A DNA stretch of 64,000 nt from Bacteroidales bacterium (lineage in GTDB: Bacteria > Bacteroidota > Bacteroidia > Bacteroidales > F082). The translations under genes and the position numbers were made by a program. This document shows positions 19,709-53,489 of this stretch, one piece after another. Location of the stretch: contig JAQVLA010000001.1 of assembly GCA_028704385.1 (NCBI GenBank), forward strand, positions 174,794 to 238,793, written 5' to 3'. How positions within the stretch are numbered: position 1 is the first letter of the stretch; each line of letters starts with the position of its first letter. A model generated the notes under the pieces. It was not told where the DNA came from and ran no database searches. It saw only the letters and a program-made list of their open reading frames with translations.

Positions 19709-19716
19709 TAACTTTG
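19709..19716 (+). promoter_or_regulatory. Candidate -7 promoter box (TAACTTTG) for the ECF sigma gene
   Basis: Matches TAnnTTTG, 53 nt upstream of ATG 19769. Confidence 0.35.
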
Positions 19717-19768
19717 CACCTTATCTGGGCTATTTTTTCGGACAGAGACAGAAGTGCAGAACAAGCAT

Positions 19769-20362
19769 ATGACAGAAGATCAGATTAGATGGATAAGGGG
19801 TCTGAAGACCGGCAAAAAAGAAATCTTTGATGAGATTTTCAGAACCTATTATGGTGAATTGGTGGTGTACTGTCTTCGGTTTGTTGCAGACCAGGATATG
19901 GCCGAAGATATCGTGCAGGATATGTTTGTAAAGCTTTGGTTGCGTCATGACGATCTTAATATTCAATCCTCGCTGCAGGCTTATTTGTACAGGGCTACAA
20001 AAAACCATGCATTGAATCATCTAAATCAGTTGAAGATACAGGATAAGTACAAGGAATACATTGGTTTTTTAACTTTAAACGGTACGGAGAGTCCGCTGGA
20101 GAAATTGCAGGAATCTGACCTCGAACTGAAAATTAAACATGCAGTATTGAGTCTGCCCGAAAAACGAAGGGAAGTTTTTGAACTCAGCCGGCACGAGGGG
20201 CTAAAAAACAAACAGATTGCCGAACGGCTGAACATCAGTGTGAAAACCGTTGAAAATCAAATGACAAAAGCTTTGGAGCAGCTGAGAAACTTTTTGAAGG
20301 ACTATCTTCCGGTTTTGTTTTTTGGTATTCTGACTTATGTAGAAATTTTCCGGGTTATTTAG
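19769..20362 (+). CDS. ECF-type RNA polymerase sigma-70 factor (Bacteroidota expansion type)
   Basis: Region 2 is FDEIFRTYYGELVVYCLRFVADQDMAEDIVQDMFVKLW. Region 4 HTH is PEKRREVFELSRHEGLKNKQIAERLNISVKTVENQMTKAL. A FecR gene follows directly. Confidence 0.9.
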   Translation: MTEDQIRWIRGLKTGKKEIFDEIFRTYYGELVVYCLRFVADQDMAEDIVQDMFVKLWLRHDDLNIQSSLQAYLYRATKNHALNHLNQLKIQDKYKEYIGFLTLNGTESPLEKLQESDLELKIKHAVLSLPEKRREVFELSRHEGLKNKQIAERLNISVKTVENQMTKALEQLRNFLKDYLPVLFFGILTYVEIFRVI

Positions 20363-20377
20363 AAAGATTTTTTTTAA

Positions 20378-20414
20378 TAATTTTGAAATAGGGGAAAATG
20401 TAACTTAGTTTGTC
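20378..20414 (+). promoter_or_regulatory. Conserved element TAATTTTG-N3-TAGGGGAA-N11-GTTTGTC in the sigma-fecR intergenic region (candidate ECF-dependent promoter or operator)
   Basis: TAATTTTG is at 20378-20385, TAGGGG at 20389-20394 and TTGTC at 20410-20414. The same TAGGGG-N15-TTGTC element recurs at 25981-26006 and 34570-34595. Confidence 0.5.
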
Positions 20415-20447
20415 GTATTAACGAATCGTTAAAAAAGAAACGAAAAA

Positions 20448-21458
20448 TTGAGAAAGTTTATCAGATATAAGAATCTTGCAGCCAAGTACCTCTCAGGTAA
20501 CTGTAATTCCGCGGAACAACAGCAGTTTGAGCGGTGGCTTTCGTTGTCTGATAAGCACAAACATTGGTTTAAAGGGCAGACAAAAGCCTGGGAGCTTTCC
20601 AAAGCAAACACCTTATCTGATTCAATAAATGTTGAAACAGCCTTAAATAAGGTGAATCAGCGCATCGCATTCATGCACCAGCCTCAGCCGCATCGCAATA
20701 AAGCTGCCAGAAAGCCGGTATCAGTTTACAGCTGGGTGGCCGGTGCAGCAGCAGTATTTTTGCTCGGGCTGGCTGTTTTGTTTTTTATGAAAAATGAAAC
20801 ACAACCACAGATGCATGTTTTTGCTGCCATTGAAAAAACCGAAACCCCGCTTCAGCTTCCCGATGGTTCCAGTGTATTTCTTAACAGCGGATCCGAAATC
20901 GCTTATCCTGAAGGCTTTGATTCTGATATCCGGCAAACTACGTTTAAAGGTGAGGCATTGTTTGAGGTGGAATCCAATCCGGAAGCACCTTTTCAAATAT
21001 TGACAGATCATTTTGGTGTTGAAGTGCTGGGTACTAAATTTAATCTGAAAGCAGCACAGGAAACCGATCAGTATTTTGTTGATCTCATTGAGGGAAAATT
21101 AAGGCTCTTCACTTTTGATCAGGATCCAAACAGCAGCATTGAGCAGCTTATACTCTTGCCCGGCGAAAGGGGAATTTTTGATGCTGCTACCAAACGACTT
21201 TTCAGAGCAAAACAAACAGACCTGAATTTTATGGCCTGGCACAGCGGAATACTGGAGTTTATCAATACACCACTTACTGACGCGCTTGAAACAATCAATG
21301 CCCACTATCCGGTAAAATTTTTGCTGGCCGACAAACATCACAACCTGAGAATCACTGCCCGATTTGAAAAAGAATCCTCAGAACAGCTGATCGAGTCGCT
21401 GCAAACCATCTTTAGTTTTGAAGTTATAAGAGACGGACAAACCGTTTATCTCAGATAA
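20448..21458 (+). CDS. FecR-family anti-sigma factor / transmembrane sensor, 336 aa
   Basis: N-terminal anti-sigma region KYLSGNCNSAEQQQFERWL, a single TM helix WVAGAAAVFLLGLAVLFFM, a periplasmic FecR domain LPDGSSVFLNSGSEIAYPE...FEVESNPEAPF, and a C-terminal DUF4974-like tail. TTG start. Confidence 0.85.
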   Translation: MRKFIRYKNLAAKYLSGNCNSAEQQQFERWLSLSDKHKHWFKGQTKAWELSKANTLSDSINVETALNKVNQRIAFMHQPQPHRNKAARKPVSVYSWVAGAAAVFLLGLAVLFFMKNETQPQMHVFAAIEKTETPLQLPDGSSVFLNSGSEIAYPEGFDSDIRQTTFKGEALFEVESNPEAPFQILTDHFGVEVLGTKFNLKAAQETDQYFVDLIEGKLRLFTFDQDPNSSIEQLILLPGERGIFDAATKRLFRAKQTDLNFMAWHSGILEFINTPLTDALETINAHYPVKFLLADKHHNLRITARFEKESSEQLIESLQTIFSFEVIRDGQTVYLR

Positions 21459-21460
21459 TT

Positions 21461-21493
21461 TTTGCCCTGTAATATTCCTTTCAAGTATTTTTG
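21461..21493 (+). promoter_or_regulatory. Candidate complete housekeeping promoter (-33 TTTG, 21-nt spacer, -7 TATTTTTG) for the STN-barrel gene
   Basis: TTTG is at 21461-21464 and TATTTTTG at 21486-21493. The ATG is at 21520. Confidence 0.4.
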
Positions 21494-21519
21494 TACTTTA
21501 GCCACCGCATTAAAAAGTG

Positions 21520-22863: not shown

Positions 22864-22875
22864 TTAAAACATCGT

Positions 22876-25860
22876 ATGAAACTAAAGCAATTAGGGTATT
22901 TTATCTTGCTGCTTGTCGCTATGCTGACCTGGAAAGTTGAAGGACTTTTTGGGCAGCAAACCGAAATCGGCGGAGACCTGATAGCTAACCGAACCCTATT
23001 TGCCGACACCACCTATATTATTGTAGAGGACTTGCGGGTTGCTTCGGGCATCAGCCTACAAATAGAGGCCGGAACACAATTACGTTTCAAACAGGGCAAA
23101 GGTTTGTTGATCGACGGCGGATATCTGAATGCTGTTGGCCAATCTGAGCTTGGAGTAGATTCAATCCGTTTTGTGGCAGACTATACCAATCCTGCACAGA
23201 GCTGGAAATGGAAGGGTATATTGATACAAAACATTCTGGGTGACGGCCAGGTAATTATTGATTTTGTTGTAATAACTAACGCTGAACGCGGTTTGGATAT
23301 CACAAATGCTGCTTATATAAGTGTTTCAAACTCTTTAATAATAAGCAATTACTGGAGAGGGATATCCCTGCTTAATTGTCGCGAGGTTATTTTTGAAAAC
23401 AATCATATCCTGGATAATTACGTAGGGCTAGAGATCATTGCAAACGGAATATTCAGTGTGTCTCATCATAATATTATTCGAAATAATGTATTCAGAACTG
23501 AAACAACAGGGATTTTAGTAATTAATAGTAATGGCGGTAAAAATTATGGTAATGTCATTGAATCTAATGTTCTACAGCAGGGAGTAATTGGGATTTGGAT
23601 CGACAATAGCGGGCAGTCCGGGTCACGTTCAAATACCATTTTTAATAATGCTATTATCAATAATGGGAACGGATTTGGTTATGGGTTATACCTGGCAATG
23701 GATTCAACGATTGTGATGAATAATATTTTTTGGCAAAATAGTACTGCAATAAATTTTAGAAATTCTTCAAATAACATTCTTAAGTACAATAGTTTTTATG
23801 AGAATCATCAGGGTTTAACAATGCCTGCTGCTTCACGGAATAATCAATTGGTTTATAACACCTTCACAGAGCAGGAGAATAAGGTGACGCTATTGGGAGA
23901 AGCAGACAGAACCAGCTTATTACATAATAACTTGATGTATAATAATTTCGATACGGTTGTGATGAATTTAACTGAACAACCGATTATTGCAACTGAAAAT
24001 TATTGGGGAACGATTGACGAATCTGAGATTAAGCAGATGATTATTGATGCTGAGGATAATCCGGAATTAGGAGAAATTCAGTTTTTGCCTTTTCTGGCTG
24101 AACCTGATACCCTTGCGCCTCTCGCACCTCCCTATATGGTGAAAAAGCAATGGGTTAACGATCAGGTCAGGCTGAGCTGGAAGCCATCCCCCGAAGCAAA
24201 TGCCAGGGGGTATAAAGTGTATTTTAATGGATATAAAAACTATGGTTTTGCAGATAATCTGGAAATGATTTCAGACACAATCATCAGTTTACCACAATTG
24301 GTGTTTTCGGATGAAATAGCAGTTACATCTGTTAAAAGCACAGCAAAAGCCATGTTGGGAAATCTGGGATACGAAAGTCCTTATGCATTCGCCAAGCCTT
24401 ACCCCTATGCTGGTTCTGATACAGCGATATGCAAGCACGAATCTGTTTTTAGCATCACCGAAGCACACAACCCCTTTAGCCCTTCGCAAGTGATTTGGAT
24501 AACAGAGGGCGACGGTATTTTTACCAATCCGCTGCAGCTGCATACAAACTATTATCCCGGAAATGAGGACCTTGAAAATGGCTGGGTAAAATTATCATTG
24601 AAAGTACTCACCGCAAATGCTGAATACATTGAAACGTTCCGTTTAACTTTTACGAACGAACCTTTTGTTTCGACAGGGGCAGATACGCTGATTGGGGTTG
24701 ATAGTACTTTATGGTTACAAAGCGCAGTAGCCTGGTATTACGATCAATTACAGTGGATTAGTCTGGGTGATGGATTATTTTCTGACCCATCGGTACAAAA
24801 CCCTGTTTATTATCCGGGACCTGCTGATTATGAAGCCGGAAGTGTTGATCTTATTTTGCAGGCGCAATCCGATTGTGGAAATACACAAGATACTATCAGG
24901 ATATATTTTGAAAGCGTATTTTCTCTGAAAGGAAAAGTCTGGGATGGAAGTACACCATATCCAAAGGCGAAAATACTGGCGTTACGAATTGATTCAAATG
25001 CTTTTAATTTACTAACATCAGTTCGAACGGATGAGCTGGGGAGCTTTGTATTTCCTGAATTATACAGTGGCATTTATGTTTTGCAGGCTGTTCCGGACAC
25101 ATTGGATGCAAATTTAAGTTCAGCGTATTATGCGAGTGCAGCTGTTTGGGATAAGGCACACCATATTCAACTTAACGCCAGGACAGAGGATGTTGATCTG
25201 GTATTCAAGAGGATACAAAATTTCTTGCCTGTAGGAACCAATAGGATCTTTGGCAGATTTAACTTACCTGGAGAGCAGTTTACTGATTCCCATGTATATT
25301 GTGATGACTGGTACCTGCGAAACGATCAGCTGGAGTATTGCAGCGAAGGATTGTCTAATGTAGGCATCCATCTCTATAATCCCGGGATGAATGTATTATT
25401 GGCTTCCACCCGCACAGATTATAAAGGCTATTATTATTTTGATAGTTTGCCCTATGGAAGTTACCGTTTGCACGCTGACCTTCCAGGATATCATATGATT
25501 ACAAGTCAGTTGATAAATTTCACCCCGGAATCCGAAACAACCATTGCAGTTGATTTTAGTTTATTTTTAAAACAGATTAATTCAACGGTATATCCACCTG
25601 GGGAGGAAGTTAAGCAAGGGAAGGCTTTACTATTCCCGAATCCGGTCACAAATCAGATGGCAGTTGTGCATGACTTTGAAGCGATTATTTACATTGGAAT
25701 TTATGATTTATCAGGCAGGCTTGTTTTTGAAAGGAGACAACCGGAAACAGAAGAAGGAAATAAACTATTCATTGATGCTTCTCAGTTGATACCGGGGGTG
25801 TATGGTTTAAGAATAGTTGGTAAATATCAAACACAAGTATTGAAGTTTGTTAAAGAATAG
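22876..25860 (+). CDS. T9SS-secreted right-handed parallel beta-helix repeat protein (NosD/pectin-lyase-fold-like), 994 aa
   Basis: Has a signal peptide. About 22-residue beta-helix repeats rich in N/I/G span roughly aa 120-360 (ITNAERGLDITNAAYISVSNSLIISNYWRGISLLNCREVIFENNHILDNYVGLEI...). There is an Fn3-like segment RLSWKPSPEANARGYKVYFNG and CarboxypepD_reg-like segments. The C-terminal T9SS sorting domain is LLFPNPVTNQMAVV...GVYGLRIVGKYQTQVLKFVKE. The gene starts 12 nt after the STN-barrel gene. Confidence 0.7.
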   Translation: MKLKQLGYFILLLVAMLTWKVEGLFGQQTEIGGDLIANRTLFADTTYIIVEDLRVASGISLQIEAGTQLRFKQGKGLLIDGGYLNAVGQSELGVDSIRFVADYTNPAQSWKWKGILIQNILGDGQVIIDFVVITNAERGLDITNAAYISVSNSLIISNYWRGISLLNCREVIFENNHILDNYVGLEIIANGIFSVSHHNIIRNNVFRTETTGILVINSNGGKNYGNVIESNVLQQGVIGIWIDNSGQSGSRSNTIFNNAIINNGNGFGYGLYLAMDSTIVMNNIFWQNSTAINFRNSSNNILKYNSFYENHQGLTMPAASRNNQLVYNTFTEQENKVTLLGEADRTSLLHNNLMYNNFDTVVMNLTEQPIIATENYWGTIDESEIKQMIIDAEDNPELGEIQFLPFLAEPDTLAPLAPPYMVKKQWVNDQVRLSWKPSPEANARGYKVYFNGYKNYGFADNLEMISDTIISLPQLVFSDEIAVTSVKSTAKAMLGNLGYESPYAFAKPYPYAGSDTAICKHESVFSITEAHNPFSPSQVIWITEGDGIFTNPLQLHTNYYPGNEDLENGWVKLSLKVLTANAEYIETFRLTFTNEPFVSTGADTLIGVDSTLWLQSAVAWYYDQLQWISLGDGLFSDPSVQNPVYYPGPADYEAGSVDLILQAQSDCGNTQDTIRIYFESVFSLKGKVWDGSTPYPKAKILALRIDSNAFNLLTSVRTDELGSFVFPELYSGIYVLQAVPDTLDANLSSAYYASAAVWDKAHHIQLNARTEDVDLVFKRIQNFLPVGTNRIFGRFNLPGEQFTDSHVYCDDWYLRNDQLEYCSEGLSNVGIHLYNPGMNVLLASTRTDYKGYYYFDSLPYGSYRLHADLPGYHMITSQLINFTPESETTIAVDFSLFLKQINSTVYPPGEEVKQGKALLFPNPVTNQMAVVHDFEAIIYIGIYDLSGRLVFERRQPETEEGNKLFIDASQLIPGVYGLRIVGKYQTQVLKFVKE

Positions 25861-25922
25861 TTAATCTTAAAACTAACTTGAATTTTATCAATATTTATAA
25901 GCTGATATTAATGTCAAGTTTT

Positions 25923-25930
25923 TATTTTTG
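25923..25930 (+). promoter_or_regulatory. Candidate -7 box (TATTTTTG, followed by CAG) upstream of giant gene A
   Basis: Homologous to TAATTTTGCAG upstream of gene B. Here it is separated from the TAGGGG element by 50 nt. Confidence 0.35.
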
Positions 25931-25980
25931 CAGCCGATTTTAACAACAACTAAAAATCTTAGAATTATTTTAAATAACGA

Positions 25981-26006
25981 TAGGGGTAAACAAGCCTGAT
26001 ATTGTC
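25981..26006 (+). promoter_or_regulatory. TAGGGG-N15-TTGTC element in the leader of giant gene A
   Basis: TAGGGG is at 25981-25986 and TTGTC at 26002-26006. The spacing equals that of the copies at 20389 and 34570. Confidence 0.45.
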
Positions 26007-26310
26007 TTAGGGTTGAGTTAGCATAAACCAACAAACCAATAATATGCTAACCAAAAAGGGAATAAAGTAAAATATTAACAATTAAAGAACTAACAATCAA
26101 TACCTGGCATTTTAAAAAAGACACGCGCAATTATTGCGATTATTTTGTGTATTACAGGTTGTATAACTTCAAAAGCTGAATATGAACTATCCTGATCAGC
26201 GTACCTATCAAAAACTTTTTTTCAACAAGGATTTACTCTGGACTGTTGCGGATCGCAGCGTCCAATTTCAATCGATAACACAATCAATTCATCATTTTTT
26301 ATTAACTAAA

Positions 26311-26355
26311 TCAATTTTAACCATGAACAGAAAAACTACTTTTCTGCGATGGCTT
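26311..26355 (+). repeat. 45-nt block identical to 34838-34882 (translation-initiation region of giant genes A and B)
   Basis: TCAATTTTAACCATGAACAGAAAAACTACTTTTCTGCGATGGCTT is identical in both genes. The following signal-peptide codons diverge strongly. Confidence 0.9.
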
Positions 26356-29300
26356 GGTTCCTTTATGGTAGGAGTTTTCCTGCTTTCCGGAATCGGGCTT
26401 AATGCTTATGCGCAACAAGCGTCGCGCAGAGCTCCGGTTGATCCTTCGACACTGGTAGGAATGCCAGCCGAACGACAAAATGCCGGAACTTTTACACCTT
26501 CTAACCGTGAAGCTCAAAACATTGACATCACTGTTGATGTTGATAATTGGTTCGATGAAGCTGAATGGAATATCTGGAGCTATGACCAAGGTGCCTATTA
26601 TTATCCTTCATGGCAGCTTTTTAGTTCTTCCTTTGAAGTTGTTAATGTTATTGTTGGCCTTGAGCCAGGCGATTATTCCATTGATGTATGGGATGATTTT
26701 GGTGATGGCGGCATCGGGGGCATAGTTAAACAAGGTTTGGTAACCTTGGTGAGCTGGGATAATTATGATTATACAGATTTTGCCTGGTTTGATTTTACTG
26801 TTTTTGAACCAGCTCCACGCGTTGATGTTACTCCTTTGGTACTTGATTTGGGCGATCGTCCAATCAATTCCTGGACAGAACCTGCTTATTTCACCGTACA
26901 AAATACAGGTGTAGGTCCTGTAACTATCAATAATGCCGAAATTGCTGCCGATGCTTTCTTCGGCGTAGCTGCTCCTTCATTCCCCATTACTTTAGAAGAA
27001 GGAGAAACTGTTGAAATTGGTATTACTGCCACAGGCAATGCTGCTCCTGGTTTGCTCGAAGGCGACTTCGTAGTGCAATGGGGTGCTGGCCGCGAAGTGA
27101 CCGTAACCGAATTTATGGCTAATGCCTATGAACCAATTGTTGCAGATGTGGTTGAAACAGCTATTGAGCTGCCTGTTAATACGATGGCTCCTGCAAGTTT
27201 GCCAATAGCTGATTCAAGAGAGTTTGGTGGTATTTACAAGAACTATATCTTGCCTAATGATGTTGGATCTGGTCCAAATGATAACGACTATGTATATCTG
27301 CTTCTACCCGCAACAGACATGCTGTTTGATGTGTATGTGACCAGTGGTTCTGCTAATTTTGCTATTTATGCTGCTGACTTTAGCGGCGAAGATGGCCCAA
27401 TGGCAACCAATGCCTTAGTTCAGGCAGTTGATGCAATTGACGATTTCGAACTCTTTGCTGGCACTTACTATTTAGTAGGTAGCTCTTTGGATGTATGGGG
27501 TGGCTCATTTAATGTAGATGCTATGCCAGATCCAGAAGCAGCTATCAACATTGCTCCTGCTGATGGAGCTGTAGATATTATCAATGGTACTGATCTGGAG
27601 TGGGCATTTGGAGCCAATACACTGGAATATCAGGTTATTTTGGGTACTACCTATCCACCTGCAACTGTTGTTGTTGACTGGACGGATGAGTTAGCTACTT
27701 CCTATACCCTTTCTAATCTTGAACCTAACCTTCAGTATTTCTGGCAGGTTAATGTACGTAATAATGGTGCTACAACTACCGGCGAAGTTTGGGGATTCAC
27801 TACTACTTTAACTCCTCCATCTGATCTTACAGGTAATGCTGAAGTTTACGAAGGTGAAGATGTTGTTTTAACATGGGAAAGCCCTGTTGACCGTGCCTTC
27901 CTCGGATACAATGTATTTAAGGATGGCATACAGCAAAATGTTTCTATGCTTACCGAAGCTACCTACACAGATGTAGCTCCTGCATACAATATGACTCCTG
28001 GATATGAGTACACCGTTACCGCTATCTATGACGAAGGCGAATCAGATCATTCTGCTCCTTTCACTGCACAGGTAACAGGCGAAGGTACCTTAAATGGTAA
28101 TGTTTCTGACCTGAATACAGGTGATGACATTGCTGGTGCTACTGTTTCCATGATTGGTGTGGATGAGTTTGGTGAAGATCAATCATACAGCACCACTACG
28201 GATGCCAATGGAAATTATACCGCTGATGTTTTCGCCGGCACTTACGACATTCGCGTTACTGCTGACGGTTACCTGCCTGCAGAAGTAACTGGCGTGGCTC
28301 TTGCCTATGGAGCTACCGAAACTACTGACTTTGTTCTGAATGAAACACCTTATCCGGTTGCCGTTGTAACTGCCAGCGAGTTTGGTGAAAACATCCTGAT
28401 AGAGTGGAGCTTTGATTTAGTTAACTTTGTTCCTCAGGTTTATCCTTTCGATAGCGAAAGTATGAACGAAGCTCAAATCCAGAAAATGTGGAAGGGATTC
28501 CTTGCTGAGAATAACTTCGATGCTACCGCTCAGGGAAGTGATCGCGCACTGGTTGAATTCCAGGTATGGCGTGAAAAAGCTTACCTGCCAGGAACTATCG
28601 AATTGGTTGGTACTACTTCACAATTCCAATTTGTTGACTTCGACTGGGATGTTCAGGATTGGGGTGTTTACAAATGGTATGTAGTTGCAGTTTATGATCT
28701 GAACGAATCAGATCCTGTAGGTTCAAATACAGTTGACAAGGACATGAACACTGTTGTTGATGTTACTGTTGCCCTCAATTCAGCTGACAGCCCTGCCGGT
28801 ACGCTCGTTGAGTTTACCAATGTGGACGAATCTCCTGAGTTGATTTATTCAGCCTTGCTGCCTGCAAGTGGTGAGTACGAATGGAGTGAGTTCCGCAAAG
28901 GTACCTACGACATCCTTGTAAGCTTACCAGGATATGGTGTTGTAAACGAAACCGGTGTTGATATTTTCGACGAAACCTCATTCGAATGGTTGCTCGAAGA
29001 ATTACTCGCAACACCTGCTGACCTTTATGTTACCCCAACAGGTTTTGCTACCTGGACAGGTGGAAGCGGTGAAGTGCCATTTGTTCCTGTTGTAGTTGAC
29101 TTTAATGATGGCATACCAGCTGACTGGACTGTTGAAGACGGTGAATTAGCTAATGCTTCTGGTGGAAGTTGGCAGGTAGTTCCTTCAACTTCCGGAAGGT
29201 ATATGATGGGCGATGATTATGTAATTGCTGATTCTGACGCAGCTGGAAGCGGAAGTATTACCCATACTATACTTACTTCTGCTGTTTATCCTGCCGAAGG

Positions 29301-34380: not shown

Positions 34381-34418
34381 TCTGATGAAATCGAAATTTT
34401 GATTTCGACATATACAAG

Positions 34419-34447
34419 CCGGATCCCAACAGGGATCCGGTTTTTTT
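34419..34447 (+). terminator. Intrinsic terminator after giant gene A
   Basis: CCGGATCCC-AACA-GGGATCCGG followed by TTTTTTT. An AT-rich hairpin TCGAAAT-TTTG-ATTTCGA (34391-34408) precedes it. Confidence 0.8.
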
Positions 34448-34558
34448 ATTAATAATTTTGACATTTTTCTGAATGTCCTAAACATCTAAAGGTCTGATGT
34501 TTTGGTCATGAAATAAGAATAAATTTCTATAAAACCCTTGTATTTATTAGGCTTTTAT

Positions 34559-34595
34559 TAATTTTGCAGTAGGGGAACTTTCATTTGAGTTTGTC
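34559..34595 (+). promoter_or_regulatory. Conserved element TAATTTTG-N3-TAGGGGAA-N11-GTTTGTC upstream of giant gene B
   Basis: TAATTTTG is at 34559-34566, TAGGGG at 34570-34575 (contains GGAAC at 34573-34577) and TTGTC at 34591-34595. It aligns with 20378-20414. Confidence 0.5.
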
Positions 34596-34837
34596 TTAAC
34601 CACAACCAAGGGACAGAATAACTCCAATTTTAACTTAAACAACAGTAAAAAAAACTGCTGCTTGAAGTTTATATGTATAAATTTCAAGATAGTTTACTAA
34701 ACCTGTTTAATTAAATAATGGAGTATAATAGTTTTTATCCTTTTCATTTACGAAGAATCTCTGACCATTACGTCGCAGCTGCTTGCCATTGCTGTGCGAA
34801 TGTTTTTTTTTATTTGATCAATTATTTATTCACTAAT

Positions 34838-34882
34838 TCAATTTTAACCATGAACAGAAAAACTACTTTTCTGCGATGGCTT
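34838..34882 (+). repeat. 45-nt block identical to 26311-26355
   Basis: See the feature at 26311-26355. Confidence 0.9.
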
Positions 34883-43084: not shown

Positions 43085-43118
43085 TTCTGACAGTTTTTAT
43101 TAAAAACTGAATCAATAC

Positions 43119-43157
43119 AAAAGAGACTGCCGATAGGTGGTCTCTTTTGTGTTTTTA
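43119..43157 (+). terminator. Intrinsic terminator after giant gene B
   Basis: AAAAGAGAC (43119-43127) pairs with GTCTCTTTT (43140-43148), followed by T-rich GTGTTTTT. An AT-rich hairpin CAGTTTT-TATTA-AAAACTG (43091-43109) precedes it. Confidence 0.7.
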
Positions 43158-43276
43158 GGCTTTTCACCCTGATTAATGAATCCGGTTTTATAATATTTTA
43201 AATCTTGTGTTAAAAAAGTTTTAAAAAAATTCACCAAAATTTGTGTAAATCAAAAAAAGCTTTATACCTTAGCCTC

Positions 43277-43284
43277 TAATTTTG
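43277..43284 (+). promoter_or_regulatory. Candidate -7 box (TAATTTTG) for giant gene C
   Basis: Matches TAnnTTTG, 37 nt upstream of ATG 43321. No TAGGGG-N15-TTGTC element was seen in this leader. Confidence 0.4.
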
Positions 43285-43320
43285 ACCAATTTTTCTATTT
43301 ATTAACCAATTTCTATTATT

Positions 43321-46300: not shown

Positions 46301-49300
46301 CGGTAGCGGATGTAGTGGCTTTTGAACTGGATGAAGACATGGTTCAGATTACCTGGGGCGGTTCAACACCTCCTCCTCCACCTCCATTGATTGCCGAGTG
46401 GCTGTCATACGATGACAATGGTATTGCAACGCAATACTGGTGGGCTGGAGCAGGTGCACCTTTCTCCTGGGCTATCAGTTTTGACCCTGCTGACCTGGCA
46501 GAACTGGATGGCTCTTCTTTAACCAAAATTGCCATTTTCAATACTGCTGTTGCAGATGTAAATACACTGAACATCTATCAAGGCGATCTGGAAGCAGGAA
46601 CTGCAACTTTGGTTCATACCCAGAACTTAACCGGTCTTACGCTGGAAGCCTGGAATGAAGTTGATCTGACAGTTCCGGTACCGATTGATGTCGCACAACA
46701 ACTCTGGATATCATTGTACAGCCCAAGTCCAACCGGTGGAGTAGCTGCTTCAACACCCATTTACAACGCTAAAGGTGATTGGGTTAATTTTACAGGTAGT
46801 TGGCTACATATGAGTGCTGACCTGGGTTATGATGTTACCTGGAGCCTGAGAGCCTTTGCTACCAATGCTGCCAACAGAAGTGTTACGCAACTTGTTAGCA
46901 AATATCAGGAACCCAGATACAATACCAATGCAAGTGCTTCTTTAGAATCATTTGATGTTGTTGGTGCTAAACCATTCCGTCCGGAAACTATCGCCAGAGG
47001 AATTGCAGATTATACTGTATGGCGCGAAAAGGTTTATCAACCCGGCATATTGGAAGAAATAGGAAATACAACTCAGCTTGATTTTGTAGATTTCGACTGG
47101 GCTACAATAGATTGGGGTGTTTATCGCTGGGCCGTAACAGCCAATTACGATGGAGGCCAAAGCTCTATTCCTACCTTCTCCAATACTTTGGATAAGGACA
47201 TGGAAGTAGTAGTTGATGTTGCTGTAACACTCAATTCCAATGAATCACCCGGTGGAACTTCTGTTACCTTTACCAATATTTCAGAGCCGGATCTTGAACT
47301 GGTTTTCAATACCACACTTGACAATTCAGGCTTGTTTACCTGGAACGATTTCCGTCGCGGTGTGTACGACATCGAAGTTAAACTACCTGGCTATGCTGTT
47401 GTTAATGAGGCCGGTGTAGAAATCTTTGATGATGCTTCATTCGCATGGTTACTGGAAGAAATTCTGGCTACACCTTCAGCATTATATGTTACTCCAACAG
47501 CTTTTGCAACCTGGGAAGGTGGAAGTGGAGATTCTCCTTTTGTTCCTTTGATGGAAAGCTTTGATGGACTTGCCACAGATGAATTACCTGAAGGTTGGAC
47601 TAAATCTCCTGAAACCACAAACTGGGGAGCTGATAATTCAAATTTAGCTGGTGGTGTTGCACCTGAAATGGAATTTTATTGGTCCCCATCAAGTACTGAT
47701 GAATTTTATTTGATGACACCTGTGATGAGTACTGCTGGTATGAGTATGCTTGAATTATCATTCAGACATTACGTAAGTCATTATAATAGTACTACTTATA
47801 CCTGGTCACTCAGAGTGGTAGCGATTGCTGATGGTGTAGAATATTTGATCCAGGAATGGAATCCAACTGCAAGTATTCCGGCAACTCAGGTATTTTTTGA
47901 CCTGACAGCTGCTCATGGAGTTGGTGCCAGTGAGTTTCAAATTGCCTGGGTTTTCGATGGACAAACCTTTGGAATTAATTACTGGGACATTGATGATGTA
48001 ATGCTCAATGGCCCAAGAGCCAAAGCTGGCCGTTCATTCGAAAATTACAAGGTATTCCTGGATGGTCAATTGGTTGATGAAACAACGGATAGCGAATATC
48101 AGTATGATGTTTCAACACTTGTTCCTTACGAAACATACACTGCTGGTGTTGCTTCTGTATTCTCAACAGGCCAGTCACCAACAGCTGAGTTCGACTTTAT
48201 CTATGTTCCATGCGAAGATTATGATGCTCCTTCTGCTTTCGCAGCCGCTCAGGTTGAAGGCACACTCGACATCCTGCTCGAATGGACGAATGTGGACGCT
48301 GCTGCTTTGGATACCATCTCAGCTTTGAGAATCTATCGCAATGGCGAAGAATATGCCGAACTTGACTTTACTGAAGGAGCTGTTGACATGTTCCTCGATG
48401 AAGACCTCGAATTCGGTATGTACACTTACTGTGTAACCTATATTTATGACAGCGGTGCCGAAACCTGTCAGGGTGTAACTTGCTCTGAAGAGATCGAAAT
48501 CGACGGCAACGCCGCAGTTGACGGTATGGTAATGCAGGCTGCTTATCTCGGTGGTGATCCTATCCAGGGTGCATCTGTGTTGCTTGTTAATGTGGATGAT
48601 CCGGATATGACGTTCGAATATTTCACCGATGCAACGGGTGCTTACGAAGGCAGCGTGATAGCTGGTACTTATGACTATTTTGTAAGTGCAATGGGATACT
48701 CAACGGAAACGCTCGAAGATGTTGTAATTGTGTTGAATGCAACAGTTACCAACAACTTCGAACTGATGGAATTCCCATTCCCGCCGATCAATGTGGTTGC
48801 AACAGAAATCTCGGATGATAATGTCTTGATTACCTGGCACAACCCAACCTATGCACCATTTGAACCTATCCTGGAGACCTTTGATAATGGTATTCCTTCA
48901 AGCTGGACAATAGTTGATGGTGGTACTTCAACGGATACCTGGTATATGGAAACCCCTGCAGGGAATCCACAAAGTACAGGTGCTTCACTGGATGGAACTC
49001 CATTTGCTTTCGTTGATTCCGACGAAGCCGGTAGCGGATTCACCCTGGATGAACTATTGATTTCTCCTGTTATCAATGCTTCAACCTCTGAGGAATTGTA
49101 CGTTATCTTCGATCAGTACTATAACTTCCTTACCTCTGGCGAATATGCCAAGGTTGATGTATTTGATGGTACCGATTGGGTTACAGTATTGAATCAGGTT
49201 GCTGATGCCGGTGCATGGAATAACCCTGATCATCGTGTAATTGATGTGACTGCATATGCCAATGAGAATTTCCAGGTTCGTTTCCATTTCTTTGACAATG

Positions 49301-52300
49301 GAGGCTGGACATGGTACTGGGCAGTTGATAATGTAGCCATCGTTGATCAGGTTACACGCAGTGGAATGCCCGTTTTGAGCAATACCACACCACCCGAACG
49401 CGAACTCTTTGGATATGAAGTATATCGCACTACCTGTGAAACTGGCGATCTGCAATTCCTTGGTCTTACTTTGGACACCTTGTTCAACGACAATACCTGG
49501 GGTGGATTGGAAGCCGGTGTTTATAAATGGGGTGTAGTTGCTGTTTATGATGAAGATAACTTATCAGAAATGGTATTCTCCAATTGTCTGGATAAAGACA
49601 TGATCACTCAGGTCAGTGTAACCGTTCAAACCAATAGTGGTGATCTGCCAGACGGAACAAACGTGATGTTTACCAATACTTCAGAACCCGATCTTGGTTT
49701 GGTTTATGATGTAATGCTGGATGAAACAGGATATTATATGTGGGAAGAATTCCGTAAAGGTATCTATGATATTTATGTTGCCAAAAACGGATTCGAACCG
49801 ATCGAAATTGCCGATTATCTGATTGATGGTCCTGAAGATTTCGTATGGACGCTTAATGAAGCCTTACTTCCTGTTTCTGATCTGTATGTTACACCAACAG
49901 GTTTTGCAACCTGGAGAGGTGGAAGCGTAATACCATTCGAACCATTTATGGACGACTTCTCTGAAGGAATTGATGCCTGGACAACTGAACCAGCCACTGG
50001 TAACTGGCAATTGAGCCAAACCAACCTGGCTGGCGGTGTTGCTCCTGAGGTACGTTTCTACTGGAGTCCAAATACTACAAACAGGTTCTACTTCAAGTCG
50101 CCTGTGATGAGCACGCTCACACAAACTGAACTGGAGCTGAGCTTTGATCACTTTGTAGATCATTATGCTACACCATTCACTATTTCTGTTGTAACCATCG
50201 CTGATGGTCAGGAGTATCTGGTGGAAGAATGGAATCCTACTGCTGATATTCCTGCCAATAATCATGTTGTAACACTTACTAATGCGCATGGAGTTGGTGC
50301 GGATGAATTCCAGATCGCATTTGTGTTTGATGGAGAAGCCTGGAATGTAAACTGGTGGAATATCGACAATGTAATGCTTTATACTCCCGGAACCCGTGAG
50401 CTTGAGTATTACAAGGTATGGCACGAAGGTTTATTCATTACCGATACTCCCGAGACTTACTATCAATACGATGTTGAAGGTCTTGGATTAGTTGAAGGTG
50501 AAGAATACCTGGCAGAAGTTGCAGCCATTTATTCCAATGGTATGTCGCCTAAGATGAGCTATCTTTGGACTTATTATGGTTGTGAAAACTTCCCCGGACC
50601 TGAAGAACTCACTGCTGAAGTGAACGGTCAGGATGTAACCCTCAACTGGGACGAAGTTGTTCCTCCACCACCAGGTGGTGATGGTATTGAAGAAGACTTC
50701 GAAAGTGGTTCATTATCCGAAGGCTGGACGGTTGAACAAACCAATACTGCCACTGGTGGGCCTACACCATCTTATTGGACTGTAAACAATTATATCAGTA
50801 CTGATTTCTCTCCATTTGGAACTTATCATGCTGGATTATGGTGGGATTATGGCCATCAGGATGAATGGTTGATTACCCCAGAATTCAATGTTCCGGCTGG
50901 TGCCGAGTTGAGTTTCTGGTCCGTTGTTTACCAGGGCAGTACTTACCTGGATCACTATTATGTGAAGATTTCAACCGATGGTGGTTCTACCTGGACTGTA
51001 CTTTGGGATGCTTCAACACTTAGTGGTGGATGGAATTACTACAACTTCCCATACGATATCGACCTTAACAGCTACGCAGGACAGGATGTAAAACTTGCTT
51101 TCCAGGCTGTTGATGGTGACAATCAAGGTCTCTGGTATATCTTCTTTGTAGATAACATTGTAGTATCTGGTGAAAGCAGATCTCTGGCCTTCGATACCGA
51201 AAGTCTGATCCGTCAGAGCAATTCTGCAAACCGTGATATGTATGCCCGTGATGGGAACAATACAGCTATCGCACGTCATCTTAATGCAGAAGCAGATGCT
51301 GATGCCGAAATCAGAACCGTTGAAATGGGCCGCGAAATGTGGGATCTGCTGTATGACTTTGATATGGATACTCCTTCTGGTTTAACTGGCCTGGCCGGTG
51401 CCGAATCTGATGGTGAGTTTATCTATGCAACTAAATGGGCAAATAATCAACTTGTTAAATTCGATCTCGATGGTAATCATATCGAAACCTTCACCATTCC
51501 TGGTGTTACAGGCTTGAGAGACCTTGCCTATGATGGAACCTACTTCTATGGAGGTAGCGGTGCTACTACAGTATATAAGATGGACTTCACTAATCATACC
51601 CTGGTATCCAGCTTCACTGCTCCAACAGCAGTAAGAGCTATTGCTTACGATGCTGATAATGATGCATTCTGGGCTAATAACTGGGCAACAGATATGATTC
51701 TTTTCACTGAAACAGGTACCGTTTTAAATACCTTGACAGGAATGCCAAGTATGTATGGTAACGCTTACGATAACTTTAGCGAAGGTGGCCCGTATTTGTG
51801 GTTCTTTACGGGTACAACAACAGGTGGTGGTTGCCAGGTTGAGCAATATAATATTGCAACCGGATCCCTGACTGGTGTTTCACACAGTGTTAGTGCTGAC
51901 CTGGGCGATTATATCGCTGGTGGCCTTTACATTGTTGAAGACCTTATCAATGATAAAGTAATCCTGGGTGGTACTGCACAAGGAACTCCAGACATTGCCT
52001 TTGGCTATGAAATTGTTGACAACTCCGGCGGTGGCGGCGGAGGCGGTGGAACTATTGATCCGGGCGTTCTGCTTGGTGCCAATATCTATCGCAATGGTGA
52101 GCTTATCGCTGAAATGGTTCCCGGAACCAGCTATGTTGACGAAGACGTAGAATATGGTATGTACACTTATTGCGTTACCTTCGTTTACGAAAGCGGTGCT
52201 GAGTCATGCTTCGGAACTTGTGTTGACGTGGAAGTTGCCTTCCCATGCGATCCTCCAAAGGACCTCACTGGTGTTTATGAGTGGACAATAGAAGAATTTG

Positions 52301-53424
52301 GAGCACTTATCGGATGGAATTCACCACAGGATGCAATAGCAGAGTGGCTGTATTATGATGATGGAACTAATGTTGACGGTATTGGTGGCCCTGCTTCCTT
52401 TACCTGGGCTATCAAGTTCGATCCTGATCAGTTGGCAGATTACGCTGGTGCTTCGCTCACCAAAATTGAAATCTACAACAGAACAGCTGCAACGGATGAG
52501 CTGCGTATTTACGAAGGAAATAATGCTGCTACATTGCTTCATTCACAGCCATTGAGTGGTTTGGGTATCGAAGTTTATGAAACAGTTGACCTGACAGAGG
52601 CAGTTCTTATTGATGTTACCAAACAGCTATGGATTGCCGTTTACACGACAGATGGAGTGAATTATCCTGCAGGTTGCGGACCTACTCAGAATGAGCCTAA
52701 CGGTGACCTGATCACGCTGGATGGCGTGCTTTGGGAACATCTGACTGACTATGCATTACCATATACCTGGAACCTCCGCGGTTATGTAACCAATGTTGCT
52801 GGTGCAACTGCTGCCTTGCCAATGGAAAAACCTGTTGACGACTACAGCAACAACACCGAACCATTGAAAATTACAGGAAAACCAAGTGCACAGTTTGCAG
52901 CTCCTGCCTCTGCAGTACAGGCTGATCGCGAATTGGATGTATTTAATATCTATCGTGAAACAGCTGATGTTGATGTTTACGAGCTCATTGCTACTGTTCC
53001 ATTTGAAGAAGGTGTTACGGCTTACAGTTACTTTGATACTGATGTTGAAGCTCAACAAGGGTACAATTATCAGGTCACTGCCGCCTATTCCTATACGAAC
53101 GGAACCTGCGAATCAGAGCCCGCTATGGCACTCGAAAATCCAGAGGATGACTTTGTATATGTATTCATTACCAATACAAGCGAATTCGGTTTGAACAATA
53201 CCCGCGTTTATCCTAACCCGGCTACTAACAATGTTATGATTGAATCTGCACAGATGAATCGCATCACTGTGATGAATGCCGTTGGTCAGCTGGTAATCGA
53301 TCTTGGTGTTGAAGGTAATAATACTTATCCTCTGAATACCAGTGCTTATGAATCTGGTGTATATTTGATTCGTATCGAAACCACCGAAGGTGTTGTAACA
53401 AAACGTCTGACAATCGTTAGATAA
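43321..53424 (+). CDS. Giant T9SS-secreted multidomain surface protein, paralog C (3367 aa)
   Basis: Signal peptide MKSNLTYARWLFSVLLIAFVWSGSAFAQ. It has two choice-of-anchor-J-like domains (about 43522-43980 and 50683-51175) on the shared Fn3/CarboxypepD_reg/MAM-like backbone. It also has two EWLxYDD modules and a beta-propeller-like insert (about 51330-52020). The C-terminal T9SS sorting domain is VYPNPATNNVMIESAQMNRITVMNAVGQLV...GVYLIRIETTEGVVTKRLTIVR. Confidence 0.85.
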   Translation: MKSNLTYARWLFSVLLIAFVWSGSAFAQSKVVKPDQDVLSAIESAAAVFDQGQLNPTRNFRSPVCPSGNLSEGFEDLTFPPSGWVRYNPLGANQWVRSTTYSNTGSASAYITYQSTGGEDWLVTPKVNVLVGDEISFWIRHAFSSDYPPDNLAVLVSTTDNSMASFTDVIATLAVGTDYTDVFQQKSYALDAYAGQSVYIAFKHTNTDGNGIYIDDVEGPELYSPYFASDPSLDFGVTYDLGSYSMDFEIANCSAGDLELTFNSASPEVGISGLPLTVATGDVGTITVNFDPSSAGLYTGDFMINTNDPDNPILEVEVLSAVQEAVVTASIYENFDSYAGFEIPDNWIGNFSTRTTGGVNNTGRFTRNLWSLNSTGQFGTNFVDIADDGTLSFQYRIVDYSGYPSTPTPAANVDFGVYMSTDFGNSFLPLWVFDPLTHVESLDYAAVEIDLSAYSGETAIFVVDAVWNSGDFYLDFDDFNVTFVEPGLQFLVDEILMGDRPIGAWMRPASLGMINNPGRGSYTFTAVDLDNNYNGFLSASSPELPFVLDEGETTDAFGIRTNNVEATPGAYNGLLALFYTPSDRAVAVIPYSGNAYVPLEGDVWETAFDANAVTFPDVVAMGSFVNNYLLPGEDEDGWDVVYKIDVNSGDVLLDITLTADDAKMAIYASGFEGVGGPDVANAIYEGTTGATGLELFEGVYYLVVSTTGADFTLDVVDNLMPAPDAVTYLAPADGATGIINGDELEWAFGAGVIEYQLILGTTYPPATVVVDWTTDLEESYTLTTLNPNMQYFWQVNVRNNNGTTGGEVWGFTTSITPPADLTATVNDPGETSATVSATLEWTSPLDRALIGYNIYRDAVMINTDPVVGESFTDLGLARNAAYSYYVTAVFDEGESDPSNIVNINTLGVGSVEGYVFEALNNDPIEGATVRLQGANGIYTYATDADGAYEGLVYAGLYSYTVSATDYDNQTLSGQTVIHGGTLMNDFYLTESPYPVADVVAFELDEDMVQITWGGSTPPPPPPLIAEWLSYDDNGIATQYWWAGAGAPFSWAISFDPADLAELDGSSLTKIAIFNTAVADVNTLNIYQGDLEAGTATLVHTQNLTGLTLEAWNEVDLTVPVPIDVAQQLWISLYSPSPTGGVAASTPIYNAKGDWVNFTGSWLHMSADLGYDVTWSLRAFATNAANRSVTQLVSKYQEPRYNTNASASLESFDVVGAKPFRPETIARGIADYTVWREKVYQPGILEEIGNTTQLDFVDFDWATIDWGVYRWAVTANYDGGQSSIPTFSNTLDKDMEVVVDVAVTLNSNESPGGTSVTFTNISEPDLELVFNTTLDNSGLFTWNDFRRGVYDIEVKLPGYAVVNEAGVEIFDDASFAWLLEEILATPSALYVTPTAFATWEGGSGDSPFVPLMESFDGLATDELPEGWTKSPETTNWGADNSNLAGGVAPEMEFYWSPSSTDEFYLMTPVMSTAGMSMLELSFRHYVSHYNSTTYTWSLRVVAIADGVEYLIQEWNPTASIPATQVFFDLTAAHGVGASEFQIAWVFDGQTFGINYWDIDDVMLNGPRAKAGRSFENYKVFLDGQLVDETTDSEYQYDVSTLVPYETYTAGVASVFSTGQSPTAEFDFIYVPCEDYDAPSAFAAAQVEGTLDILLEWTNVDAAALDTISALRIYRNGEEYAELDFTEGAVDMFLDEDLEFGMYTYCVTYIYDSGAETCQGVTCSEEIEIDGNAAVDGMVMQAAYLGGDPIQGASVLLVNVDDPDMTFEYFTDATGAYEGSVIAGTYDYFVSAMGYSTETLEDVVIVLNATVTNNFELMEFPFPPINVVATEISDDNVLITWHNPTYAPFEPILETFDNGIPSSWTIVDGGTSTDTWYMETPAGNPQSTGASLDGTPFAFVDSDEAGSGFTLDELLISPVINASTSEELYVIFDQYYNFLTSGEYAKVDVFDGTDWVTVLNQVADAGAWNNPDHRVIDVTAYANENFQVRFHFFDNGGWTWYWAVDNVAIVDQVTRSGMPVLSNTTPPERELFGYEVYRTTCETGDLQFLGLTLDTLFNDNTWGGLEAGVYKWGVVAVYDEDNLSEMVFSNCLDKDMITQVSVTVQTNSGDLPDGTNVMFTNTSEPDLGLVYDVMLDETGYYMWEEFRKGIYDIYVAKNGFEPIEIADYLIDGPEDFVWTLNEALLPVSDLYVTPTGFATWRGGSVIPFEPFMDDFSEGIDAWTTEPATGNWQLSQTNLAGGVAPEVRFYWSPNTTNRFYFKSPVMSTLTQTELELSFDHFVDHYATPFTISVVTIADGQEYLVEEWNPTADIPANNHVVTLTNAHGVGADEFQIAFVFDGEAWNVNWWNIDNVMLYTPGTRELEYYKVWHEGLFITDTPETYYQYDVEGLGLVEGEEYLAEVAAIYSNGMSPKMSYLWTYYGCENFPGPEELTAEVNGQDVTLNWDEVVPPPPGGDGIEEDFESGSLSEGWTVEQTNTATGGPTPSYWTVNNYISTDFSPFGTYHAGLWWDYGHQDEWLITPEFNVPAGAELSFWSVVYQGSTYLDHYYVKISTDGGSTWTVLWDASTLSGGWNYYNFPYDIDLNSYAGQDVKLAFQAVDGDNQGLWYIFFVDNIVVSGESRSLAFDTESLIRQSNSANRDMYARDGNNTAIARHLNAEADADAEIRTVEMGREMWDLLYDFDMDTPSGLTGLAGAESDGEFIYATKWANNQLVKFDLDGNHIETFTIPGVTGLRDLAYDGTYFYGGSGATTVYKMDFTNHTLVSSFTAPTAVRAIAYDADNDAFWANNWATDMILFTETGTVLNTLTGMPSMYGNAYDNFSEGGPYLWFFTGTTTGGGCQVEQYNIATGSLTGVSHSVSADLGDYIAGGLYIVEDLINDKVILGGTAQGTPDIAFGYEIVDNSGGGGGGGGTIDPGVLLGANIYRNGELIAEMVPGTSYVDEDVEYGMYTYCVTFVYESGAESCFGTCVDVEVAFPCDPPKDLTGVYEWTIEEFGALIGWNSPQDAIAEWLYYDDGTNVDGIGGPASFTWAIKFDPDQLADYAGASLTKIEIYNRTAATDELRIYEGNNAATLLHSQPLSGLGIEVYETVDLTEAVLIDVTKQLWIAVYTTDGVNYPAGCGPTQNEPNGDLITLDGVLWEHLTDYALPYTWNLRGYVTNVAGATAALPMEKPVDDYSNNTEPLKITGKPSAQFAAPASAVQADRELDVFNIYRETADVDVYELIATVPFEEGVTAYSYFDTDVEAQQGYNYQVTAAYSYTNGTCESEPAMALENPEDDFVYVFITNTSEFGLNNTRVYPNPATNNVMIESAQMNRITVMNAVGQLVIDLGVEGNNTYPLNTSAYESGVYLIRIETTEGVVTKRLTIVR

Positions 53425-53459
53425 ACCACATAGAAGTTATTAAAACTTCAAAATAAAAA

Positions 53460-53489
53460 GGGGAGTGCCGGAAGGTGCTCCCCTTTTTT
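53460..53489 (+). terminator. Intrinsic terminator after giant gene C
   Basis: GGGGAGTGCC-GGAA-GGTGCTCCCC followed by TTTTTT. An AT-rich hairpin GAAGTT-ATTAA-AACTTC (53433-53449) precedes it. Confidence 0.8.

Follow-up and report, generated by a model that had tools for sequence, protein, structure and literature searches.

A FecI/FecR-type module with a small STN-barrel protein and giant type IX secretion cargo as its predicted output in an uncultured Bacteroidales bacterium

Cell-surface signalling is viewed as something that TonB-dependent transporters do, and the regulation of type IX secretion system (T9SS) cargo is poorly understood, above all for the very large surface proteins that are common in environmental Bacteroidota. 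A 64-kb stretch of DNA from an uncultured Bacteroidales bacterium (the window, by which we mean this whole stretch) brings the two subjects together. Between 19.7 and 53.4 kb it carries seven consecutive plus-strand genes, encoding in this order an extracytoplasmic function (ECF) sigma factor, a FecR-type anti-sigma factor, a protein that appears to join an STN domain to a small outer-membrane barrel (the STN-barrel protein), a beta-helix protein and three giant proteins, the last four of them predicted T9SS cargo. Could a trans-envelope switch here be devoted to the deployment of giant secreted proteins in place of a SusC transporter? A sequence-only reading of this DNA had proposed so, and had placed the seven genes where the list of open reading frames (ORFs) of the window indeed has them. 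We find the coupling of the ECF/FecR/STN genes to T9SS cargo to be strongly supported in silico, on the strength of a conserved gene order, a shared promoter-like motif and the lack of a SusC in the window; the part of the proposal that fell short concerns the third giant gene, which has no such motif.

Gene order and the promoter-like motif

Our consideration of the gene order starts from one genome per GTDB species, which gave 58 loci against whose ORFs the window proteins were compared by BLAST. These loci come mostly from Bacteroidales (many of them labelled Lentimicrobiaceae or Lentimicrobium), Marinilabiliales and unclassified Bacteroidota metagenome-assembled genomes, and the denominators given here are the loci with room on the contig. 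L040, L042 and L051 are Lentimicrobium genomes of this kind with the module, and L028 comes from the chromosome OY781105.1 of a complete genome. A sigma gene and fecR lie upstream of the STN-barrel gene in 45 of 46 loci, the beta-helix cargo gene follows it directly in 50 of 51, and a giant-like gene comes after the beta-helix gene in 25 of 29, the remaining four having at this place a large ORF with a signal peptide that runs off the contig. Across about 50 species-level genomes one meets the order sigma factor, FecR, STN-barrel protein, beta-helix protein and large secreted protein, and the recurrence of synteny that the earlier reading had asked for as a check is clearly there. Look-ups of exact proteins found the identical order at STN-barrel homologs of 55%, 39% and 22% identity, the gene order outlasting both divergence to about 22% identity and altered flanking genes. 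Four contigs with a full or partial module (L016, L037, L058, L068) are filed under Patescibacteria, Omnitrophica or Chlorobiota metagenome-assembled genomes, labels that are probably binning errors.

Among the ORFs of at least 120 aa scanned across the whole window, there is no SusC, SusD or TonB-dependent receptor. The adjacent susC-susD pair that marks a polysaccharide utilisation locus is therefore missing, and the sigma/FecR pair is left without an alternative transporter partner in the window.

The motif gives the second line of evidence. The pattern AGGGG-N16-TGTC has exactly three matches on both strands of the 64 kb, compared to 0.28 expected, and none of 100 shuffles reached three. 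The three sites, of the form tAGGGG...N16...TGTCtta, stand before fecR, before giant 1 and before giant 2 (P1, P2 and P3 in Table 1); the shared motif claimed earlier for the giant genes is thus borne out for the first two and not for the third. A weight matrix made from 76 unique instances, all of them outside the window, with the consensus GTAGGGGTAAAA-n10-TTGTCTta, picks out the same three positions with the scores listed in Table 1, the next best position in the window scoring 4.9 bits and the best of 30 shuffles 11.1 bits.

When the module strand of the 58 loci was scanned at a threshold of at least 12 bits, a site was found at the sigma|fecR position in 48 of 52 loci and after the beta-helix gene in 38 of 47, with only two further matches elsewhere in these loci. 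An unbiased search for the best 28-mer shared between the sigma|fecR spacer and the spacer after the beta-helix gene recovered the motif in most genomes, its TAAGGGTAAA and TAAGGG variants included. The spacers of the two sites are more alike within a genome (identity 0.56) than across genomes (0.42), and none of 5000 permutations was as high; such co-variation is expected if one co-evolving factor reads both sites. Two loci carry additional sites: L052 (12517) has a third one before a second giant, as in the window, and L045 (1228) has a strong one of 42 bits between the STN-barrel and beta-helix genes.

The sigma gene itself has no ECF-type motif on its 5' side, in the window or in any of 52 related loci. 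This fits the behavior of such ECF sigma genes in B. thetaiotaomicron, which are not autoregulated: a housekeeping promoter primes them, and it is the remainder of the locus that is induced (Martens et al., 2009, PMC2709373). The window has a candidate housekeeping -7 box, TAACTTTG, before the sigma gene. Taken alone this box is weak evidence, since the window shows no enrichment of the pattern TANNTTTG, with 76 matches where 65 are expected. Considered together, the box before the sigma gene, the missing ECF site there and the conserved site right after the sigma gene make the same layout as in B. thetaiotaomicron. We also considered whether the shared motif is a mere Bacteroidetes housekeeping -7 box, TAnnTTTG, and rejected this because that box is neither enriched nor what the relatives conserve. 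A scan for E. coli-type sigma-70 promoters was uninformative.

The motif can also be approached without regard to the genes. JGI metagenomes scanned with the exact consensus alone yielded 116 stretches, 80 of which were fetched and analysed, and module genes are present in about 27 of these 80. Wherever a motif-bearing sigma-fecR pair had downstream sequence, the next gene was an STN-barrel gene, in every case, and never SusC. The exact consensus is found as well 5' of smaller proteins with T9SS type-A-like C-termini (L073, L081, L094, L120, L140, L141) which do not adjoin a beta-helix gene, and the regulon may extend to other T9SS cargo. Its presence 5' of sigma homologs in two metagenome contigs, L095 (1099) and L113 (722), suggests autoregulated relatives. 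As far as these sequences go, the motif is tied to the module and to T9SS cargo strongly, not exclusively, and it defines no clean regulon.

The putative signalling proteins and the cargo

The sigma factor and FecR calls of the sequence-only reading, the FecR_C domain included, hold without difficulty. The sigma factor matches TIGR02985 (Sig70_bacteroi1) with E=1.1e-52 and 178.6 bits against a cutoff of 126.4, as well as Sigma70_r2 and Sigma70_r4_2, which places it in the FecI-like clade. FecR matches PF04773 (1.4e-12, 48.3 bits) and PF16344 FecR_C (6.8e-8, 32.9 bits), both over their cutoffs, and has a single hydrophobic helix at about residues 92-113; its architecture is that of an N-terminal anti-sigma region, one transmembrane helix and a periplasmic part with FecR and FecR_C, and its gene adjoins the sigma gene. 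In GCA_035363175.1 (L001 8306-9231), fecR is annotated with 308 aa, compared to 336 aa with FecR_C in the window and in contig L003, which may reflect an assembly or frameshift difference at the 3' end.

The third gene needs a longer argument, since the STN domain assigned to it earlier escapes a direct profile search of the window protein and emerges at the level of its family and of a structure model. Among close homologs, 7 of 14 match PF07660 STN and 4 of 14 match outer-membrane beta-barrel models. Of 93 aligned family representatives, 49 match PF07660 (best 6e-16) and 19 match OMP_b-brl_2; Plug, TonB_dep_Rec and PorP_SprF match none of the 93, and Plug and TonB_dep_Rec do not match the window protein either. 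In a search of the PDB, the family profile matches PilQ in its N0/STN domain (4.6e-5), a Bacteroides anti-sigma factor (4m0n) in its STN-like C-terminal domain (6e-4) and PupA in its STN signalling domain (0.023). An exhaustive profile search covering 1.84 billion representatives returned 105 clusters at E<=1e-30 and 590 at E<=1e-10, and the clusters listed are mostly of about 400-480 aa, plus some shorter fragment-like entries. The window protein is identical to PHG67_00815 of GCA_035363175.1.

An AlphaFold model from an alignment of 14 sequences was mediocre (pLDDT 68.5); the alignment of 93 sequences firmed the domains, not the linker, and raised the mean pLDDT to 85. In this model residues 49-122 form a beta-alpha-beta / beta-alpha-beta-beta domain with an STN-type fold (pLDDT ~96), residues 205-447 a barrel of roughly 10 strands (pLDDT ~95), and the linker at 125-200 stays below 50. 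Foldseek matches the barrel to OmpA-TM, NspA, OmpW and Ail with TM-scores on the target of 0.6-0.73. The protein would then consist of a signal peptide, the STN domain, a flexible linker of about 80 aa and the barrel. Within the linker, at residues ~141-187 (window 21940-22080), there are five tandem hexapeptides DT[VIL]x[IV]x, a repeat with a median of five copies and a period of six across the 93 relatives. We take these repeats to resemble proteobacterial TonB boxes such as DTLVV and DTITV, and they may be TonB-box-like elements. The best-conserved stretch of the whole protein lies in the barrel, at residues 287-314 (GGYYxxDTxDxYYTxxxxDTxWxYVTDS), where the model has a hairpin joining two very long strands.

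Judged from the family profile and the model, the third gene would encode an STN domain joined to a small barrel, and the earlier label is right despite the failure of Pfam on the protein's own sequence. The sequence-only reading had named a failed HMM search for STN in this product as a refutation; taken literally that outcome did occur, and the label holds up only with the family profile and the structure model. The plug and 22-strand barrel of a TonB-dependent transporter are not found in this protein of 447 aa. The gene was also considered as a truncated SusC pseudogene, and this was ruled out because the length of about 440 aa and the architecture are conserved in more than 100 clusters.

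The cargo genes begin 12 nt past the STN-barrel gene. The beta-helix protein (994 aa) has a NosD-like right-handed beta-helix (NosD 1e-18, Beta_helix 5.5e-17), a CarboxypepD_reg domain and a T9SS type-A sorting domain (Por_Secre_tail/TIGR04183). Type-A sorting domains had been claimed for it and for all three giants, and TIGR04183 agrees, with 31.4 bits for the beta-helix protein and 40.8, 43.9 and 38.5 bits for giants 1, 2 and 3 against a cutoff of 23; together with TIGR04183/PF18962, the signal-peptide-like N-termini make these proteins type-A cargo. The giants have 2685, 2744 and 3367 aa, which gives the total of 8796 aa reported before, and each contains TIGR04183, fn3 and CarboxypepD_reg, giants 2 and 3 also having choice-of-anchor J / Cleaved_Adhesin. 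Giants 1 and 2 are 75% identical across 1199 aa and the last 450 aa of every pair are 64-68% identical, and from these alignments we describe the giants, as the sequence-only reading did, as paralogs, here with shuffled internal repeats. A sequence search of the PDB found no match for the beta-helix protein and generic Ig-like domains only for giant 1.

A strong terminator hairpin lies behind each giant gene, so the giants appear to be separate transcription units. In the 5' region of giant 3 (43085-43320) there is no ECF-type motif; a strong terminator precedes the gene, and a TAATTTTG box stands 37 nt ahead of the ATG. Although its C-terminus is so similar to theirs, giant 3 probably has an expression of its own, separate from that of giants 1 and 2. 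Being without a site and behind a terminator, giant 3 leaves only giants 1 and 2 as candidates for direct control. Alignment by MAFFT of the regions 5' of the giants was too gappy for use.

The start of giant 1 deserves a comment. Ahead of its signal peptide, 26182-26322 holds 47 in-frame codons, beginning MNYPDQRTYQKLFFNKDLL and ending TKSILT, and followed by MNRKTTFLRWL. This stretch is conserved in six species (L005, L012, L013, L015, L016, L018) with the ATG kept and no stops, and its substitutions, 128/92/233 by codon position, are biased towards third positions, a bias not seen in the preceding 141 nt (605/610/595). The pattern of substitutions indicates that the 47 codons are probably translated, as an N-terminal extension before the Sec signal peptide or as a leader peptide, and 26182 may be the start of giant 1. 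In giant 2 (34718-34849) the corresponding stretch has degenerated, and in L007 it is out of frame.

Table 1. Coordinates of the module genes and associated elements in the 64-kb window
Feature	Position	Strand	Evidence or remark
Candidate housekeeping (sigma-A type) -7 box TAACTTTG	19709..19716	+	pattern TANNTTTG; 52 nt 5' of sigma start codon
ECF sigma factor, Bacteroidetes FecI-like	19769..20362	+	TIGR02985, Sigma70_r2, Sigma70_r4_2
P1 promoter-like bipartite motif tAGGGGAAAA-N-TTTGTCgta	20388..20417	+	between sigma gene and fecR; 27.2 bits
FecR-type anti-sigma factor	20448..21458	+	PF04773, PF16344; TTG start
STN-barrel outer-membrane sensor candidate, 447 aa	21520..22863	+	family profile and structure model
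Beta-helix T9SS type-A cargo	22876..25860	+	NosD, Beta_helix, CarboxypepD_reg, Por_Secre_tail/TIGR04183
P2 promoter-like motif tAGGGGTAAAC-N-ATTGTCtta	25980..26009	+	5' of giant 1; 25.4 bits
Giant T9SS cargo 1	26182..34380	+	signal peptide from 26323; 47 in-frame codons ahead
Terminator-like hairpin after giant 1	34416..34443	+	12-pair stem, then T run
P3 promoter-like motif tAGGGGAAC-N-TTTGTCtta	34569..34598	+	5' of giant 2; 18.8 bits
Giant T9SS cargo 2	34850..43084	+	signal-peptide start = 34850
Terminator hairpin after giant 2	43107..43158	+	-28.9 kcal/mol, z = -7.8
Giant T9SS cargo 3	43321..53424	+	paralog; no P-type motif 5'; TAATTTTG box at 43277
Terminator hairpin ending the block	53455..53488	+	15-pair stem

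In the window the locus is flanked by housekeeping genes. Just downstream of the block, on the minus strand, 55786-57963 encodes a 725-aa adhesin-like protein with CshA-repeat, Big_9 and DUF4842 domains, and at the left end of the window 449-3736, also on the minus strand, encodes a 1095-aa Sortilin-Vps10 / BNR-repeat protein unrelated to the module.

A model for the module and its alternatives

We propose, and consider likely, that the genes form a FecI/FecR-type trans-envelope module whose outer-membrane partner would be an STN domain on a small barrel and whose output would be T9SS cargo. From the conserved domains and sites, we read the receptor as one that has lost the body of a TonB-dependent transporter and the regulon as one of T9SS cargo. 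In the resting state, the sigma gene would be transcribed from a housekeeping promoter without autoregulation, as the missing motif and the analogy to B. thetaiotaomicron suggest, and FecR, if it behaves as its domain homology predicts, would keep the sigma factor at the inner membrane with FecR_C contacting the STN domain of the barrel protein. A surface cue would then alter the STN-FecR contact and release the sigma factor; this cue is probably sensed through the conserved barrel hairpin, possibly together with the co-transcribed beta-helix protein that T9SS would export. The released sigma factor would initiate at GTAGGGGTAAAA-N10-TTGTCT promoters, assuming that it is the local sigma factor that recognises them. 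Firing of P1 would drive the fecR, STN-barrel and beta-helix genes, a feedback making more sensor, and P2 and P3 would drive giants 1 and 2, which would be exported by T9SS via their type-A C-terminal domains and perhaps act at the surface as multi-domain adhesin-like proteins. Giant 3 would be a paralog outside this direct control.

Let us assume, going further, that the beta-helix protein docks on the barrel hairpin, and that the pair reports contact with a solid or polymeric substrate, or serves as a checkpoint of T9SS secretion, passing the signal through the STN domain to FecR. The DT repeats might then be multiple TonB boxes and the transporter-free sensor a force-dependent mechanosensory switch, not coupled to ligand import, that gates the giant T9SS cargo. 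We offer this extension tentatively and think it unlikely to hold.

A number of observations weigh against the model proposed here and need attention. Giant 3 has no site in the matrix scan of the window, and at the threshold used P2 goes undetected in 9 of the 47 loci. In the metagenomes, about half of the matches to the exact consensus lie away from module genes, some being plainly chance matches, for example inside hisG-like or acyltransferase genes. The likeness of P2 and P3 in the window could stem partly from duplication of the giant genes together with their leaders, and the motif could be recognised by another factor. No published promoter consensus was found for Bacteroidota FecI-like ECF sigma factors, and our -35/-10 assignment and spacing are unmatched; for the 'PM2' motif of B. 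thetaiotaomicron there is only a verbal description, of -10 and -30 elements linked to oxidative-stress genes. The synteny is partly vertical inheritance, as can be seen in L001, L005, L007 and L009, the four related species for which upstream flanks were read, where genes for L21 (rplU), L27 (rpmA) and seryl-tRNA synthetase (serS) adjoin the locus. Lastly, the STN-barrel protein of the window, searched by itself against Pfam and NCBIfam, gives no match even at E<=10.

These observations leave room for other explanations of the same locus. The small barrel might be a structural outer-membrane anchor or a secretion accessory for the beta-helix protein or the giants, in the manner of PorP/SprF, with the sigma/FecR pair answering some other periplasmic cue and the STN domain only tethering or stabilising FecR. 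The adjacency of barrel and cargo genes, 12 nt apart in the window and recurring in 50 of 51 loci, would suit such an anchor, as would a barrel that in the model is too small for ligand binding and transport in the style of a TonB-dependent transducer; moreover, a passage in one source (PMC11637429) describes how STN domains can protect anti-sigma factors from proteolysis without a signal. We nevertheless regard the anchor as rather improbable, considering that neither PorP_SprF nor another anchor family matches any of the 93 representatives, that the model retains the STN domain with high confidence, and that its strict linkage to fecR (45 of 46 loci) points to signalling. The cargo has type-A sorting domains, and cargo of this type is normally anchored via anionic lipopolysaccharide (A-LPS) and not by a partner barrel, which counts against an anchor as well.

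The motif itself might be the site of some other regulator or of a different ECF sigma factor, or part of an RNA leader, so that the reach of the local sigma factor would end at most with its own operon and the giants would lie beside it through shared chromosomal history. That this sigma factor recognises the motif is something we infer, the exact consensus also occurs 5' of unrelated metagenome genes, and the locus sits in a vertically inherited neighbourhood. In addition, P1 and P3 of the window each have a TAATTTTG box 4 nt upstream, so a transcript started by the housekeeping sigma factor could have the motif as its 5' end. The upstream TAnnTTTG box, however, is not conserved in, for example, the relatives L009 and L043, and the search of the window against Rfam matched no family. 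A bystander motif would also hardly have a bipartite form of fixed spacing on the coding strand only, with one copy always between sigma and fecR, the other before a giant and both co-varying within genomes, nor would an STN-barrel gene always follow the motif-bearing sigma-fecR pairs; we think this explanation quite improbable. That the sigma/FecR/STN cassette and the cargo genes are adjacent by chance and functionally unlinked is barely conceivable: Bacteroidota carry many ECF/FecR pairs and many T9SS cargo genes and some adjacency is expected, but chance adjacency is already contradicted by an order found in about 50 species-level genomes and by the shared, highly specific motif.

The module among known signalling systems

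If the model is correct, a FecI/FecR/STN switch can run with a minimal outer-membrane barrel and can be dedicated to the deployment of giant secreted proteins. With its defined promoter consensus, its conserved beta-helix partner and a sensor family that is compact (about 100 clusters at 50% identity), the module would be a place to study what is sensed by a cell-surface-signalling receptor that does no transport. The uncultured Lentimicrobiaceae abound in anaerobic digesters and sediments, and the consensus would also be a means of predicting the regulons of the module sigma factor in them.

The sequence-only reading knew of no comparable system. A full-text search found no literature uniting type IX secretion, FecR, a sigma factor and cargo, and the literature we found on cell-surface signalling in Bacteroidetes concerns the SusC paradigm only; that much of the claim stands, and the part that has to be given up is the absence of any conceptual precedent, for which see PUMA3 below. 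The conserved module appears to be previously undescribed, with an unusually small candidate sensor protein.

The nearest relatives by phylum are the SusC-type signalling loci of Bacteroides (PMC2709373), which share with the module a TIGR02985 sigma factor, a FecR with FecR_C and an STN domain on the outer-membrane partner, as well as a sigma gene that is apparently not autoregulated in a locus of which the rest is induced. In B. thetaiotaomicron, the N-terminal domain of SusC contacts the anti-sigma factor's C-terminal domain (PMC2709373). Unlike in those loci, the partner in the module is predicted to be a 447-aa protein with an STN domain and a barrel of about 10 strands, with no plug and no 22-strand transporter; the module is also without the SusD and glycoside hydrolases of Bacteroides polysaccharide loci, and its regulon is predicted to consist of T9SS cargo, with proteins of 2700-3400 aa among it. 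An ECF sigma factor with a FecR in the inner membrane and an STN protein in the outer one is an arrangement shared with FecA-FecR-FecI of E. coli and with the FpvA, PupB and FoxA iron systems of Pseudomonas, and as in those systems the sigma-dependent promoter is predicted before the receptor operon, not before the sigma gene. In contrast to those systems, the module receptor presumably cannot import a ligand, the targets are unrelated to iron, and the order is sigma, fecR and receptor on one strand with the putative sigma-dependent site between sigma and fecR.

Two other comparisons concern secretion. PorXY-SigP of P. gingivalis, in which SigP is activated via a two-component system and controls genes for the T9SS machinery (PMC7712824), is likewise a case of an ECF sigma factor connected with type IX secretion in Bacteroidota; SigP differs in that it lacks a FecR/STN partner, and it is not known to act locally on giant cargo genes. 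The PorP/SprF barrels resemble the STN-barrel protein as small outer-membrane barrels whose genes adjoin a T9SS cargo gene, and differ from it in that the module barrel has no PorP_SprF homology, adjoins a gene for type-A and not type-B cargo, and has a periplasmic STN domain linked to FecR.

The closest conceptual precedent is PUMA3 (VreA-VreI-VreR) of P. aeruginosa (Llamas et al., 2009, PMC2729926). Its VreA carries an STN domain but no transporter barrel; it is mostly soluble in the periplasm, has a TolA/TonB-like C-terminal domain and is encoded upstream of vreI-vreR. Among the secretion-related genes that VreI switches on are those of the Hxc type II system and a locus for a two-partner-secretion exoprotein (PMC2729926). 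Both systems would thus use an STN receptor that is not a transporter, with a sigma output that is secretion-related (in the module, by prediction) and not a nutrient transporter. They differ in that the module STN is fused to an integral outer-membrane barrel, and in phylum, secretion system (T9SS) and gene order, the sequence relationship shown between them being limited to the shared domains. Taken with these precedents, the domains and the structure model suggest a module that would work like cell-surface signalling and depart from it in one defining feature, namely that the predicted outer-membrane partner is not a TonB-dependent transporter.

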